Origin: Spirochaetia bacterium | GTDB lineage: Bacteria; Spirochaetota; Spirochaetia; UBA9216 | Direction: 5' to 3' | DNA length: 64,000 nt | NCBI GenBank assembly: GCA_963675665.1 | Contig: OY776510.1 | Location: 2,016,001 to 2,080,000, forward strand | Shown here: piece after piece, positions 29,772 through 32,690 of the stretch | Numbering within the stretch: position 1 is the stretch's first letter | Layout of the letters: each line of letters starts with the position of its first letter | Made by a program: the position numbers and the translations under genes | Notes under the pieces: generated by a model | Databases searched by the model: none | Told to the model about the DNA's origin: nothing | The model's input: the letters and a program-made list of their open reading frames with translations, nothing else

Positions 29772-30218
29772 TCAATATCGGGCTTTTTCCGCCTGTATAT
29801 CATAAAAAGCCTCCGCACCCTTTTCTTTTATGATTCCCCCGTTTTCAAGCCATCGTTGATAGAGGTTTTCTTTAAGGCCGGATTTGTCACAGGGGAATTG
29901 CCGGCATTCACCGCAAAAATCCGCATCCTGTTTCACGAAACAGCTCTTTATTCCGCATCCAGGCAGGCAGTTTTTACCGCCGGCACGGCAGCCGTCGCAA
30001 CCGGCATTTGCAAAAAATGAGAGGATTTTCTCAAACGCTTCATACTGGGAAAAAGGTTCAAAAAAAGATGACATTTTTTCCGCCATCCTTTTATAGTTGC
30101 CGAGAGAAGATAACAGGGCCCGGCTCTGTTCCGATATTTCTCCATTGTTAAATGATGCGCACCTTGAACAGTCAAGTCCGCAGGGAGCAAGTTTTTCCAG
30201 AAGTTCATCTCTTGTCAT
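29772..30218 (-). CDS. Cys-rich DUF3795-like protein
   Basis: APCGLDCSRC, CDGCR, CGIKSC, FCGECRQFPC; AAGGAG RBS before MTRDE. Confidence 0.75.
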   Translation of the reverse strand: MTRDELLEKLAPCGLDCSRCASFNNGEISEQSRALLSSLGNYKRMAEKMSSFFEPFSQYEAFEKILSFFANAGCDGCRAGGKNCLPGCGIKSCFVKQDADFCGECRQFPCDKSGLKENLYQRWLENGGIIKEKGAEAFYDIQAEKARY

Positions 30219-30307
30219 GTTTGTTCTCCTTATAGGGCACCTCTGATATGATGTGACCCATGTCAAGTTAAAATATCCAGGTTTTATCTATAAGATCCCC
30301 CCCCTGT

Positions 30308-30506
30308 CCAGGACAGGAAGAAAGATAGAACAACGTTTATGCGGCGATAGACCACTCTGATATTCGCGGATTGGTTACCGCAGGTCAATGGGATCGTCGG
30401 GAGCTGCCTCTGTCTAAAACCGAGGATCAATATTATTATTGCCTCATAGAGGTGCCGAGGGTTCTCCTTTATCACTGTTGTTGTTCTATCCATCCTTCTG
30501 TCCTGG
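30308..30506 (-). ncRNA. Predicted bridge RNA (seekRNA) of the IS110 element
   Basis: Long closing stem (CCAGGACAG..GATAGAACAAC / GTTGTTCTATC..CTGTCCTGG) encloses two stem-internal-loop-stem arms whose loops match the target and donor/junction sequences. Confidence 0.8.
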
Positions 30507-30530
30507 TAGCTTATTAACCAACTATCGAAG

Positions 30531-31634
30531 TCATGCGACTTCTGTTCTACCTACCATCATTCCCCAAATAAATCCTGATAATTCTCTGGCAACTGCCGTA
30601 ACAGTTTTCTGAGGGCATACCCCTCTACGAATCATCCTGAAATATTTCTTACTCAACCTTCTGCCGGCTTTATCAGCATAAGCTATTGTTTCAGCAGATT
30701 GTCCTTTCCTTCTCGCTGTCAGTCGTTTCGATGGCGAATACCTTTGGTAATGCCAGCTTGATTCCACTAACAGCCGTCGTAGCCTGGAGTTGCCGGCCTT
30801 CGTAATCCCGCCAAGCTTCCGGCCCTCTCCGCTTGAGTATTCTGACGGCACAAGTCCAAGATACGCCATGAAGGATTCCGCTTTTTTAAATCTTCTGAAA
30901 TCTCCTATCTCGCATACAAATGTTAATGCTGTTAATGTCTCTATACCTTTGAAACATCGAAGCCGGGATACCCTTTCTTTATATCTGTCTTCAGCAGCAA
31001 TCTCTTCTATTTTTTCCTGCAACCGTTCAATCTTTTCCTCTAATTCCACAATCGCAAGATAATATTCTTTTAAAACTTCTTTATGCATTACCTGTTCAAA
31101 CTGCAAGTTTTTCAACCAGGTTCGATGCGCCCCTGTCCAGTACTTTTTCCCAATATCATATTTCTTCCCGTTCCTTAGCAGAAACTGTAAGAGCCTCTGT
31201 TTCTGTTTCCTCAAATCAATTTTCATATCGTTACACATCCTCATGTAATCACGAACTGATTCATCTGTGCGTGTCGGTATATTCACCGGTGTTATTTCCT
31301 GATTCCTTAATGCTCTGGCTAATTTGACTGCATCCCTCTTGTCTGTCTTTATTCGGTCTCCGGGTTTCCTCGGCAATAATGATGGTGCTGCTACGTAACA
31401 GATAATTCCCATATCTTCAAGTAATCTATAAAGTGTAAATCCTGTAGGGCCTGCTTCGTAACAACACAGAATATTTTCTCCATTCTCTTTAAGTCGCTTG
31501 AAGAATCTTTTAATATTTCCGGGTTCGTTCCTGAGCTCTCTTTCAAACTCAGGATTCTGATAATTATCTCTGAATACCGCTACTGCGATTGATTCCTTGT
31601 GGACATCCATCCCTACATAAATTACACTATTCAT
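30531..31634 (-). CDS. IS110-family recombinase/transposase
   Basis: RuvC-like DEDD residues (GMDVH, YEAG, KTDKRDA), coiled coil, Tnp20 domain with GLVPSEYSSG serine motif and ITKAGN; GGAGG RBS. Confidence 0.95.
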   Translation of the reverse strand: MNSVIYVGMDVHKESIAVAVFRDNYQNPEFERELRNEPGNIKRFFKRLKENGENILCCYEAGPTGFTLYRLLEDMGIICYVAAPSLLPRKPGDRIKTDKRDAVKLARALRNQEITPVNIPTRTDESVRDYMRMCNDMKIDLRKQKQRLLQFLLRNGKKYDIGKKYWTGAHRTWLKNLQFEQVMHKEVLKEYYLAIVELEEKIERLQEKIEEIAAEDRYKERVSRLRCFKGIETLTALTFVCEIGDFRRFKKAESFMAYLGLVPSEYSSGEGRKLGGITKAGNSRLRRLLVESSWHYQRYSPSKRLTARRKGQSAETIAYADKAGRRLSKKYFRMIRRGVCPQKTVTAVARELSGFIWGMMVGRTEVA

Positions 31635-31872
31635 AGTGGCCTCCGTTCCTTTGTATGTGGCGTGTCTGCGCTTTGCCATTAGCCATTGTGTAGGCTAATC
31701 CACGATTTTGCAAACACGGCGGTCACTTCATATTGTCTAATAACCCTAAATTGGGCTTATCAGAGGTGCCTTGGAGTTTACTTATTTCCTTATCAGTTAA
31801 TAAGTAAACATCCACAGTACGTCTAAGGAAGACTTCTAAAAACTGCAGTTTTTAGAAGTCCCCTATAATAAG

Positions 31873-31897
31873 GATGCATTAAAGAAGTTAAAGGTGC
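31873..31897 (-). promoter_or_regulatory. Possible ECF-sigma promoter (GCACC-15 nt-GCATC)
   Basis: Immediately downstream of the ECF gene; in the reconstructed pre-insertion allele it abuts the DUF3795 RBS. Confidence 0.4.
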
Positions 31898-31910
31898 GCA
31901 AAAAATTGGT

Positions 31911-32690
31911 TTATTCGGATTTTTTTAGCATGGAGCCTATGGCAAGAGCTGTCTTTTCATACCAGGAGATGTCGGGTTTTCTTTCCGGAAGATTTCTGAA
32001 AAGAGATATTACCTTCTGCATTGTTTCCGGATCGCTTTTTTCAGAGTAAGCAGGATCGGTAAAATCCGGCGGACCGCCATGTTTTCGACCTTCTTCACGC
32101 AGGGTTTCCCTGTGTCCGGAGAACTCAACCCAGGCCCTGCAACTGCAGGAATTTTCCGGTAGCACCCATTGGCAGTGATGCCCGAAGAAGGCATTGAGAT
32201 TCTTTCTTGCGCGAAAAAGAAGCGATTTCACTGATGAAAGGGATAGTTCCAGCAGGGCTGCTGCCTCTTCGATTGAAAGGTCGAGCATATCGACGAGAAT
32301 AAAAGCTGAACGCTGTGCCAGGGTGAGTCTGGAGGCCATTGCTATGAAGCATCCGTCCTGCAGTTCCCTTACGGACTCTTCAACCTCAACCTCATGATCC
32401 GGCAACGGCGAAATATCCGCAAATTTATCTTCAAAACCGTCTTCAGGTTGCATAATTCTCCCGGCTTTTCGCTGTGAAAGAAGATAGTGGTTAAGGCAGA
32501 TACTTCTGAGCCAGCCTGCAATTTTTTTCCTGTCTGCAAGCTGGCTGCGTTTCTCCCAGGCCGACAGAAGCGTCTGCTGGGCAAGGTCTTCAGCCTTGTG
32601 GACATCGGCACAGAACCTGAACGCTGTTGTATAGGTGTAGTTTATATACGCTGTAAGTAATTCTCTAAAGCTGTCGTCGTCAATTCCCAT
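31911..32690 (-). CDS. ECF sigma factor with Cys-containing C-terminal extension
   Basis: Region 2 (AEDLAQQTLL, GWLRSICLN), region 4 (QRSAFIL...SVKSLLFRAR), then CQWVLPENSCSC. Confidence 0.88.
   Translation of the reverse strand: MGIDDDSFRELLTAYINYTYTTAFRFCADVHKAEDLAQQTLLSAWEKRSQLADRKKIAGWLRSICLNHYLLSQRKAGRIMQPEDGFEDKFADISPLPDHEVEVEESVRELQDGCFIAMASRLTLAQRSAFILVDMLDLSIEEAAALLELSLSSVKSLLFRARKNLNAFFGHHCQWVLPENSCSCRAWVEFSGHRETLREEGRKHGGPPDFTDPAYSEKSDPETMQKVISLFRNLPERKPDISWYEKTALAIGSMLKKSE

Follow-up and report, generated by a model that had tools for sequence, protein, structure and literature searches.

Our results indicate that the window (i.e., the whole 64,000-nt stretch of spirochaete DNA analysed here) very probably carries an IS1111-type element of the IS110 family that moves by RNA-guided, site-specific recombination. 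The decisive support for its guide RNA comes from the other copies of the element and from its relatives. An initial annotation of this DNA had called the element probably uncharacterised, which is right for the element itself but not for its kind: bridge RNAs and seekRNAs have been on record for IS1111 elements since 2024 (Siddiquee et al., PMC11187229; Durrant et al., PMC11208160), and the protein passes the NCBI model for IS110 family RNA-guided transposases. The element, its ends and its insertion site are placed as follows.

30245..31738 (minus): IS110-family, IS1111-type insertion sequence, 1494 bp including one of the two CT copies
30236..30244 (plus): left target half GGCACCT and CT core, also the left arm of a REP-like palindrome
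30236-42, 30243-44 and 30245-49 (plus): left junction, GGCACCT, CT and GATAT
31730-36, 31737-38 and 31739-44 (plus): right junction, ATATTGT, CT and AATAAC
31737..31772 (plus): second CT core, right target half AATAAC and the remainder of the palindrome to AGAGGTGCC
30246..30258 (plus): subterminal inverted repeat at the RNA-side (3') end, separated from the core by one base
31721..31733 (plus): subterminal inverted repeat of the 5' end; TGT (31734-36), a 3-nt extension, separates it from the core

The boundaries can be set in two ways 2 bp apart, 30243-31736 being equally possible. The genome of origin holds seven copies of the element with a common 1492-bp body and a single SNP in one of them; CT flanks each copy on both sides, as the initial annotation had proposed for the core and boundaries, and all seven read ACCT-CT, element, CT-AA, the duplication at the junctions going no further than the dinucleotide. 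One copy (L007) lies in a different palindrome with the same short motif, and target position -5 is C only in the window copy, being A in the other 6 of 7. Versions of the REP-like repeat free of the insertion occur elsewhere in the genome (L009-L015), and in an unoccupied paralogous palindrome both flanks are contiguous around one CT (38/42 identical). The 13-bp subterminal repeats are complementary at 12 of 13 positions and lie 1 nt and 3 nt away from the core, their length falling within the 7-17 bp given for the IS1111 group (PMC11208160). In contigs from four DNA runs of a single study, depth inside the element was 6-9 times that beside it and loose contig ends led into the flanks of other copies, while no contig of these runs bridged the empty site. 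The presence of seven near-identical copies points to recent activity of the element. The seven copies and one paralogue (L008) are all co-oriented on the chromosome (8/8); a tie between orientation and replication direction was rejected, since the eight occupy both replichores (by GC skew, the origin is at about 0.8 Mb and the terminus at about 3.5 Mb).

The element carries a transposase gene, whose frame is intact, with the catalytic D, E, D, D and S-G conserved.

30531..31634 (minus): transposase/recombinase gene, 367 aa, by Pfam, NCBIfam and IS621 structure matches

An alternative longer frame from 31679 would yield 382 aa. The protein matched Pfam DEDD_Tnp_IS110 (PF01548, E = 2.7e-13) and Transposase_20 (PF02371, E = 3.5e-22), and reached 240.2 bits against a cut-off of 140 with NCBIfam NF033542 ('IS110 family RNA-guided transposase'); the match to the IS621 structure 8wt6 was weak (E = 2e-10) and covered the C-terminal domain. 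Residues D25, E75, D113, D116 and S283 align with the IS621 catalytic residues, S283 standing opposite IS621 S241. Among 29 relatives, D10, E60 and D101 (367-aa numbering) are invariant and D98 nearly so, S268 and G269 are likewise invariant, and the window protein carries GLVPSEYSSG, an instance of the GL-P----SG motif. The nearest relative bears the name Spirochaetales, but among relatives at 66-74% identity there are also names from other phyla. Non-coding sequence amounts to 286 nt after the stop codon vs. 102 nt ahead of the start codon (57 nt if the upstream ATG is used). These comparisons support a predicted DEDD/Ser recombinase of the IS110 family, and together with the subterminal repeats and the long 3' non-coding region they uphold the earlier assignment to the IS110/IS1111 type.

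Downstream of the gene, the 3' region has the features of a bispecific guide RNA.

30308..30506 (minus): bridge RNA (seekRNA) gene, ~200 nt, downstream of the transposase gene
30481-30505 paired with 30309-30333 (minus): closing stem, enclosing two arms
30400..30467 (minus): target-binding arm, with stems 30464-67/30400-03, 30457-60/30407-10 and 30442-46/30421-25
30447-56 (minus): 5' loop side of the target arm, GGCACCTCTA
30411-20 (minus): 3' loop side of the target arm, GTTTTAGACA
30350..30398 (minus): donor-binding arm, with stems 30394-98/30350-54 and 30378-82/30365-69
30383-93 (minus): 5' loop side of the donor arm, TCCCATTGACC
30355-64 (minus): 3' loop side of the donor arm, AATATCAGAG, equal to the last 5 nt of the element plus the core

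The minimum free energy fold of 30300-30510 (minus) reached -72.8 kcal/mol (z = -3.9; 0/200 shuffles as good) and contained both the closing stem and the first arm, including the symmetric internal loop of the latter. Relatives were gathered from a single-protein genome contig scan (6 loci), a phylum sample of 401 genomes, 13 of which (own genome counted) gave a match at E <= 1e-60, and 80 metagenome loci. A consensus fold of 9 relatives had 49 pairs, 18 of them with compensatory changes, and the covariance model built from 9 sequences (R1) matched 86 of 98 sources at E <= 0.01 (77/89 among non-seeds); in those rows that were compared with gene coordinates, the match lies on the gene strand and 3' of the gene. 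The R1 search left out own copies L001-L007, L022, L035, L039 and L043, as well as L009-L015 (repeat flanks only), L023 (the same sequence as L018), L027 (a contig ending before the RNA), and L036-L038, L040-L042, L044 and L045 (extra copies from genomes already represented). Across the 86 relatives, 90.4% of cells were paired vs. 26-50% with slid partners, and 24 of 27 base pairs showed compensatory changes on both sides, in an alignment that had been fitted to the model structure and among related elements that are not independent, several having a common target loop. In the own genome, all eight R1 matches fell within the seven copies and L008. The closing stem and two arms read in the initial annotation are borne out by these folds, and every coordinate and string it gave is present in the sequence.

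While the target-arm stems are 88-97% paired in the 86 relatives, the loop sides are hypervariable and track the flanks of each element. Over 57 elements, agreement of the 5' side with the element's own flank was 82-91% at positions -1 to -4, vs. 26-29% with the flanks of other elements, and over 42 elements that of the 3' side was 95-98% at its first two positions, vs. 45% and 32%; for either side, 0/10000 permutations reached the total agreement. The search for further copies and the loop/target comparison that the initial annotation had suggested both speak for its reading of a guide RNA at the 3' end. The alignment of the family further reveals which loop positions carry specificity: in the 57 relatives the signal was found only at -1 to -4, in part also at -5, and at +1 to +2, in part also at +3, and was absent at -6/-7 and +4/+5. 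The earlier proposal that the RNA is programmed for GGCACCT-CT-AA(AAC) consequently stands for ACCT-CT-AA, present at all seven copies, and is too long in its outer positions; a 7-nt left target guide was rejected, since only -1 to -4 (partly -5) track the flank. Further, at -5 the loop C faces a mismatch at 6 of the 7 own insertion sites, and the 3' side of the target loop fits 3 of 5 non-core positions in the window copy. Judged from these patterns, the real target code is shorter, about (A/C)ACCT-CT-AA(A/T). Agreement is not universal, as 5 of the 57 elements match their own flank at no more than 1 of 6 positions, and in L019 the 5' target loop lacks any match to its own flank.

The paralogue L008 of the same genome is 68% identical to the element, keeps its donor loop and ends, and has a different target loop. 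This loop reads GTAAAAAG-CT and, as reverse complement, TGT-CT-ACGGA, and the L008 flanks read ..TAAAAAAG-CT and CT-ACGGG. By sequence comparison, L008 is a natural re-direction, with the same donor loop and another target loop matching its own flanks; the genome holds a 'reprogramming experiment' of its own, i.e., a paralogue with an unchanged donor loop, a different target loop and a different target.

The donor loop, in turn, corresponds to the ends of the element. Its right side matches the element end at 7 of 7 positions, and CTCTGATAT is present twice, at 30355-63 and 30241-49. In 61 of 84 relatives, this donor 7-mer is found again within the stretch of up to 330 nt read downstream of the RNA, where the element ends, with at least ten co-changing variants, including ATATAAG, ATGTCAG, ATACTAG and ATATGAG. 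The left donor side matches the other end of the window element at 5 of 7 positions, and tracks that end in relatives (e.g., ATGGTC, ACGGTC, TAACT, GATAA); what had been described as a bulge in this loop corresponds to two mismatches, the loop having the same length as in relatives. In most of 47 listed relatives, the base facing the core T is unpaired by inspection. Regarding the handshake guides, in the window ACA fits the donor TGT, and AG fits the target CT in 7/7 copies, in agreement with the initial annotation. In the family, the handshake values on the target-loop side were 0.98 vs. 0.79, 0.62 vs. 0.51 and 0.45 vs. 0.41, and those on the donor-loop side 0.40 vs. 0.23 at the first position and 0.24 vs. 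0.23 at the second, so that pairing barely co-varies on the donor-loop side, where the support for a handshake is weak.

One alternative bears on this second arm, namely that only the first arm guides, as a short seekRNA, with the second serving in processing, excision or stability and the ends being recognised by the protein through the subterminal inverted repeats. For ISEc11, 42% movement of a mini-IS was reached with an RNA of 82 nt containing just the target matches, and the authors leave the role of the long RNA open (PMC11187229); the sufficiency of this short RNA means that the necessity of the donor arm in IS1111-type elements is not settled. The long subterminal repeats of these elements are possible protein sites (PMC11208160), and the two mismatches in the left donor side of the window, as well as one mismatch between the right donor side of L008 and its own end, also accord with a donor arm free of guide duty. 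Against this, changes in the right donor 7-mer go along with changes in the element end, the left donor side follows the other end in relatives, and the donor-arm stems are conserved with compensatory changes, and we regard guidance by the first arm alone as improbable. The window element could help to decide if IS1111-type elements require their donor arm.

A far weaker case can be made for the 3' region being a structured 3' UTR, a terminator or a 69-aa frame whose junction matches are chance or leftovers of the ends. A 69-aa open frame does overlap the region (30284-30493, minus), and a search of 30100-31900 against Rfam at E <= 10 matched no family, with just three chance matches on the neighbouring palindrome. 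Moreover, among 2000 dinucleotide-preserving shuffles of 30308-30506, 44 had a word of at least 9 nt in common with the left junction, and 10 had such a word together with at least 7 nt of the right junction; the window matches taken alone are just moderately beyond chance. None of the permutations, however, reproduced the loop-to-flank agreement seen in the 57 and 42 relatives, hypervariable loops with persistent stem pairing are the opposite of what coding or terminator constraint would leave, and no run of T follows the structure; we consider this explanation very unlikely. Equally hard to credit is that the hairpins act as single-stranded DNA in a replication or copy-out intermediate, since, although base-pair covariation is the same for RNA and same-strand DNA and one IS110 element has been suggested to follow a copy-out pathway (bioRxiv 10.1101/2025.10.25.684509), the corresponding region of the relatives tested is described as an RNA that co-purifies with the transposase (PMC11187229, PMC11208160), and the frequent G-U pairs (e.g., 71/86 and 77/86 at two positions) fit the transposase-sense strand only, i.e., a transcribed sense.

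Returning to RNA-guided recombination as the preferred reading, we propose that the element would be excised as a circle, the joined ends of which would form a promoter from the following hexamer.

30261..30266 (minus): outward-facing -35 hexamer, TTGACA, near the 3' end

This hexamer would meet GACAAT (31732-37, minus) only once the ends are joined; in silico, the joint reads TTGACA-N17-GACAAT and scores 10/12, vs. 7/12 for the integrated end, and the integrated element yielded no promoter-like site on the minus strand. The joint was absent from the contigs of the four DNA runs, which could not be expected to show circles. Such a promoter would drive the transposase gene and the ~200-nt RNA as one transcript. 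The 5' side of the target loop would then pair with one strand of (A/C)ACCT-CT-A and the 3' side with CT-AA(A) on the opposite strand, the donor loop would pair likewise, one side per strand, with the joined ends ..ATTGT-CT-GATAT.., and the DEDD/Ser recombinase would exchange strands at the CT core, the predicted outcome being insertion, always in the same orientation, within the left arm of REP-like palindromes. Transcription of the RNA, its binding by the protein, circle formation and strand exchange are all presumed here by analogy with the relatives IS621 and ISEc11.

The closest described counterparts are ISEc11, ISPa11, ISKpn4 and ISPst6, reported to have the same downstream non-coding region, subterminal repeats and GL-P----SG motif (PMC11187229). 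In the seekRNAs of IS1111 elements as presented there, the gene-sense target match likewise lies 5' of the other-strand match, the two overlap at the insertion point as in the window RNA, and the pair ISEc11/ISXne4 offers a natural re-direction that parallels the window element and L008. In addition, the window element has a donor-binding loop supported by covariation, at the point which the ISEc11 report leaves open for its long RNA (PMC11187229). The window protein, with 367 aa, exceeds the 330-350 aa quoted for the IS1111 group.

IS621 is described as having the same two-loop bispecific RNA, CT core and DEDD plus Ser residues (PMC11208160, PMC11208158, PDB 8wt6). As in IS621, with CT on top, the 5' side of the loop copies the top strand of the left half-site and the 3' side complements that strand in the right half-site; as in its handshake guides, the 3' side also has 2-3 nt past the core that are able to pair with the other substrate. 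In contrast to IS621, where the RNA lies 5' of the gene, the window RNA lies 3', the CT-defined orientation runs opposite to that of gene and RNA, and the subterminal repeats are long; the effective guides here comprise ~4-5 + CT + 2-3, vs. 7 + CT + 4-5 quoted for IS621. Residence in palindromes also has a parallel in ISPpu9/ISPpu10 of Pseudomonas putida, reported as IS110-family elements with seven copies in REP palindromes, the circles of ISPpu10 forming a strong hybrid promoter (Pares-Guillen et al., 2025, PMC12288879). The small RNA downstream of ISPpu9 is described as dispensable for transposition and as moving as a separate module (PMC12288879), whereas the R1 search of the own genome found no solo RNA copy.

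The element leaves existing knowledge of the family unchanged; its interest is that of a clean natural case of RNA-guided recombination beyond the proteobacterial models, and of a possible further orthologue for the engineering of bridge recombinases. We also consider, as a tentative and rather doubtful proposition when taken as a whole, that this clade uses a guide code more compact than that of IS621 and partly fixed. Under such a code, a near-invariant CUA/UAG trinucleotide may run across the two target-loop sides, the programmable bases may be only 4-5 on one side and 1-2 on the other, and a conserved base of the left donor guide (mostly A, and C in the subgroup of the window) may not pair with the second core position. 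If so, the non-pairing base could be an asymmetry that biases strand or direction (insertion vs. excision), and recognition of only ~9-10 bp would explain why the element resides on a repeated palindrome family.

Among plasmid-borne sequences, the best protein matches came from Leptospira IS110-family plasmid elements (47% identity over 98%). We take these Leptospira elements to be of the IS1533 type. Their end sequences are different (..GGCGCCATATC-AG). The relatives L025/L026, at 47% identity, have the same RNA; by inspection, their 5' target loop has CA instead of CT at the core, and the arm includes a longer hairpin.

The element is an IS1111-type insertion sequence of the IS110 family (30245-31738, minus strand), and every string and coordinate that the initial annotation had given for it was found in the sequence. 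Its features are as follows.

30236-30242, 30243-30244 and 30245-30249, plus strand: left junction, GGCACCT, CT and GATAT, read from the sequence
31730-31736, 31737-31738 and 31739-31744, plus strand: right junction, ATATTGT, CT and AATAAC, read from the sequence
30531-31679, minus strand: open frame, with the RNA segments lying downstream
30447-30456, minus strand: loop of the first-arm 5' segment, CCTC-GGCACCTCTA-TGAGG, read from the sequence
30411-30420, minus strand: loop of the first-arm 3' segment, CCTCG-GTTTTAGACA-GAGG, read from the sequence
Minus strand: second-arm 5' segment, GATCC-CATTGACCT-GCGG, read from the sequence
30355-30364, minus strand: second-arm 3' segment, CCGC-GAATATCAGAG, read from the sequence

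The transposase (367 aa in the database gene call) contains the Pfam domains DEDD_Tnp_IS110 and Transposase_20, passes the NCBI model NF033542 'IS110 family RNA-guided transposase' (240 bits, cut-off 140) and is matched by the solved IS621 recombinase 8wt6 (E = 2e-10), the catalytic residues named in IS621 aligning with D25, E75, D113, D116 and S283 (382-aa numbering). The ends bear subterminal inverted repeats of 13 bp, ATATGATGTGACC at 30246-30258 and its near-complement at 31721-31733 (12/13), inset by 1 nt and 3 nt, and the non-coding stretches measure 286 nt 3' of the gene versus 102 nt 5' of it; in published descriptions, the IS1111 group is marked by long subterminal repeats and by an extended non-coding end downstream (PMC11208160; PMC11187229). 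Since an empty repeat site has a contiguous junction with a single CT, the element length is 1494 bp with one CT, with a 2-bp ambiguity.

The region 30300-30510 (minus strand) folds at -72.8 kcal/mol (z = -3.9; 0/200 shuffles as good), recovering the long closing stem and first arm that had been proposed from the sequence alone. Relatives were drawn from genome contigs, a 401-genome phylum sample and metagenome contigs; nine 3' regions (51-100% protein identity) aligned well, and their RNAalifold consensus, with 49 pairs of which 18 show compensatory changes, reproduced the proposed RNA architecture. With a cut-off of E <= 0.01, a covariance model of both arms (135 positions and 27 pairs, structure supplied by hand) gave matches in 86 of the 98 sources, including 77/89 non-seeds; in the rows compared with gene coordinates, the match was on the strand of the gene and 3' of it. 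The alignment had been fitted to the model, a step that biases it towards the structure; in it, 90.4% of cells were paired versus 26-50% with partners slid by 1-3 columns, 24 of the 27 pairs displayed changes on both sides, and none of five pairing measures was reached by any of 500 shuffles. Despite this bias, the structure is borne out by the slid controls together with the number of different pair types. Several positions have frequent G-U pairs, which are compatible only with the transposase-sense strand. In its own genome the model matched exactly eight sites, namely the seven copies of the element and one paralogue, and this search returned no free-standing RNA modules.

Taken alone, the junction matches are only moderately unlikely: when the non-coding region was shuffled 2000 times with dinucleotides preserved, 44 shuffles shared at least 9 nt with the left junction, and 10 shared this together with at least 7 nt of the right one. 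In 86 aligned RNAs, both sides of the first internal loop (the target loop) are hypervariable within a fixed frame, which in most rows reads G-N6-CTA on the 5' side and N4-TAG-A(C/G)N on the 3' side. For the comparison of loops with flanks, the exact 7-mer of the element's own donor loop was used to locate the 3' junction, and the inverted repeat at the 5' end to locate the 5' junction, both independently of the target loop.

Table. Agreement of the target loop with the element's own flank and with the flanks of others (5' side, the 57 elements whose flank was long enough; 3' side, 42 elements)
5' side, position -1: own 91%, others 26-29%
5' side, position -2: own 82%, others 26-29%
5' side, position -3: own 86%, others 26-29%
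5' side, position -4: own 84%, others 26-29%
5' side, position -5: own 49%, others 24%
5' side, position -6: own 28%, others 26%
5' side, position -7: own 21%, others 21%
3' side, 1st beyond core: own 95%, others 45%
3' side, 2nd beyond core: own 98%, others 32%
3' side, 3rd beyond core: own 55%, others 24%
3' side, 4th beyond core: own 29%, others 21%
3' side, 5th beyond core: own 24%, others 22%

The loop/target covariation across homologues that the initial annotation had suggested examining was thus borne out, as 0/10000 permutations reached the observed totals in the 5'-side and 3'-side tests alike, in which rows are not independent because some loops are common to several relatives. In five of the 57 elements no more than 1/6 positions matched, and in one relative (L019) the 5' target side had no fit to its own flank and the 3' side fitted at 4/5 by reading.

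The genome, a single contig of 5.15 Mb, holds seven copies of the element, which over 1492 nt differ only by a single SNP, found in one of them. Their left flanks are GGCACCT (one), GGAACCT (four), GTAACCT (one) and TAAACCT (one), each followed by CT, and their right flanks start with CT-AATAA (three), CT-AAAAA (two), CT-AAAAC (one) and CT-AAAGT (one); all seven therefore lie at an invariant ACCT-CT-AA. At position -5 six copies have A and only the window copy has C; at position +3, 4/7 have A and 3/7 have T. The target of six of the seven is the left arm of a REP-like palindrome, and that of the remaining one (L007) is another palindrome with the same short motif. Repeat members without the element were also found (L009-L015), one of which is 38/42 identical to the joined flanks of the window copy, contiguous and with a single CT. 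REP palindromes are also reported as insertion sites of the IS110-family element ISPpu9, present in seven copies per genome (PMC12288879).

The paralogue (L008, C1:4456572-4458051 on the single contig) is 68% identical in DNA to the window element and keeps both ends and the donor arm, the right side of which differs by one base, its right donor guide having one mismatch to its own end. Its target loop is GTAAAAAGCT(G) and TCCGTAGACA, and its flanks are ..GTAAAAAAG-CT and CT-ACGGG, so that the two elements represent a natural re-direction within one genome, parallel to the ISEc11/ISXne4 pair, termed natural reprogramming in PMC11187229. The transposase frame of this paralogue (1771-2875 in L008) is interrupted near the C-terminus into frames of 330 aa and 49 aa, and it is probably a decayed or decaying single copy.

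The donor loop carries on its 3' side (AATATCAGAG in the window copy) a repeat of the element's final five bases and the core, and in 61/84 relatives the donor 7-mer recurs within the DNA read up to 330 nt past the RNA, with co-changing versions that include ATATAAG, ATGTCAG, ATACTAG, ATACGAG, ATAAGAG, ATGAGAG, ATAACAG, ATATGAG, ATAGCAG and ATATTAG. The 5' side follows the other end (ATGGTC, ACGGTC, AGTC, TAACT and GATAA, with matching ends). The bulge previously described in the left donor loop is instead two mismatches, ATTGACC versus ATTGTCT, because the 5' side in the window has the length of the family. By inspection, the base facing the core T is unpaired in most of 47 listed relatives, being A in most and C in the subgroup of the window element. 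The covariation argues for use of the donor arm in this clade; the arm may be dispensable, since ISEc11 was reported to move with a short RNA without a donor arm (PMC11187229).

In IS621, two core-adjacent bases on the 3' side of each loop are described as pairing, once strands have been exchanged, with the other substrate (PMC11208158). The handshake guides proposed for our element both fit in the window, where ACA after the core of the target loop fits the donor TGT, and AG after the core of the donor loop fits the CT ending the left target in 7/7 copies. Across relatives the signal was weak: own versus others was 0.98 versus 0.79, 0.62 versus 0.51 and 0.45 versus 0.41 for the first to third bases of the target loop, and 0.40 versus 0.23 and 0.24 versus 0.23 for the first and second bases of the donor loop (the third is not applicable). 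It is plausible that these guides operate in this element.

With CT on the top strand (the plus strand of the window), the element follows the same logic as IS621, the 5' side of each loop copying the top strand of the left half-site and the 3' side complementing that of the right half-site; unlike in IS621, the gene and RNA are inverted in this frame. This inversion is the same fact that has been described as a 'reverse order' of strand matches in IS1111 seekRNAs (PMC11187229). Anatomy, common target, conserved RNA structure and the covariation of loops with flanks and ends are observations made here; following IS621 and ISEc11, the element would circularise and its joined ends would create a promoter. 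Joined in silico, the ends read TTGACA-N17-GACAAT (10/12, versus 7/12 at the integrated end), and a search of the integrated element turned up no promoter-like site on the minus strand. Gene and RNA would share one transcript, the RNA perhaps being trimmed, and the RNA would bind the recombinase and pair with both strands of the target and donor junction, the DEDD/Ser active site carrying out strand exchange at CT.

Bridge RNAs were predicted at the right end in 93% of catalogued IS1111 elements (PMC11208160), seekRNAs were shown by experiment for four IS1111 members (PMC11187229), and the element cycle has been studied further since (PMC13626964; bioRxiv 10.1101/2025.10.25.684509). That our element is a further example of this published kind is well supported on computational grounds. 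More than 7900 database proteins match its transposase at E <= 1e-40; those closest to it (72-77% identity) lie mostly on contigs of IS size, and the best plasmid-borne relatives are Leptospira elements (47%). The nearest locus (76% protein identity) is recorded under Spirochaetales and the next (71%) under Vulcanimicrobiota; at 66-74% identity, the database relatives with names are recorded under Bacteroidales, Mesoflavibacter, Eremiobacteraeota and Spirochaetales. The clade is therefore spread across phyla. Mildly new at the family level are the short effective guide code, the near-invariant CTA/TAG at the insertion point and the conserved non-pairing base of the left donor guide.

Regarding the chromosomal setting, the seven copies and the paralogue, at about 0.55, 2.05, 2.62, 2.82, 3.73, 4.46, 4.98 and 5.03 Mb, share one absolute orientation (8/8, about 1 in 128 by chance). 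From GC skew, the origin is placed at about 0.8 Mb and the terminus at about 3.5 Mb, so the copies occupy both replichores and their bias does not follow replication. A further 38 unoccupied ACCTCTAA sites occur in the genome (both strands), some of them being the second arm of palindromes whose first arm holds a copy. A second, near-perfect palindrome (GGGGACTTCTAAAAACTG/CAGTTTTTAGAAGTC.., 31822-31868), with weak chance matches to microRNA models, adjoins the target palindrome, and similar repeats stand beside other copies; the element therefore lives in intergenic palindrome clusters. The right arm of the target palindrome (31758-31772), read backwards, is GGCACCTCTGATAAG, whose first 13 bases are common with the occupied left junction GGCACCTCTGATAT (30236-30249), so that in this repeat variant the other arm resembles the recombinant junction, possibly by chance since other repeat members have A, not G, after CT. 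The element sits between the gene for a sigma-70 family factor containing regions 2 and 4 (31911-32690, minus strand), upstream of it, and a DUF3795 gene (minus strand), about 25 nt upstream of whose likely ATG (30219) it lies; the listed 164-aa frame (29772-30266) reaches into the element only via an upstream TTG. The element end and flank form a promoter-like GTCACA-N17-TATAAG (9/12) pointing out to the DUF3795 gene.
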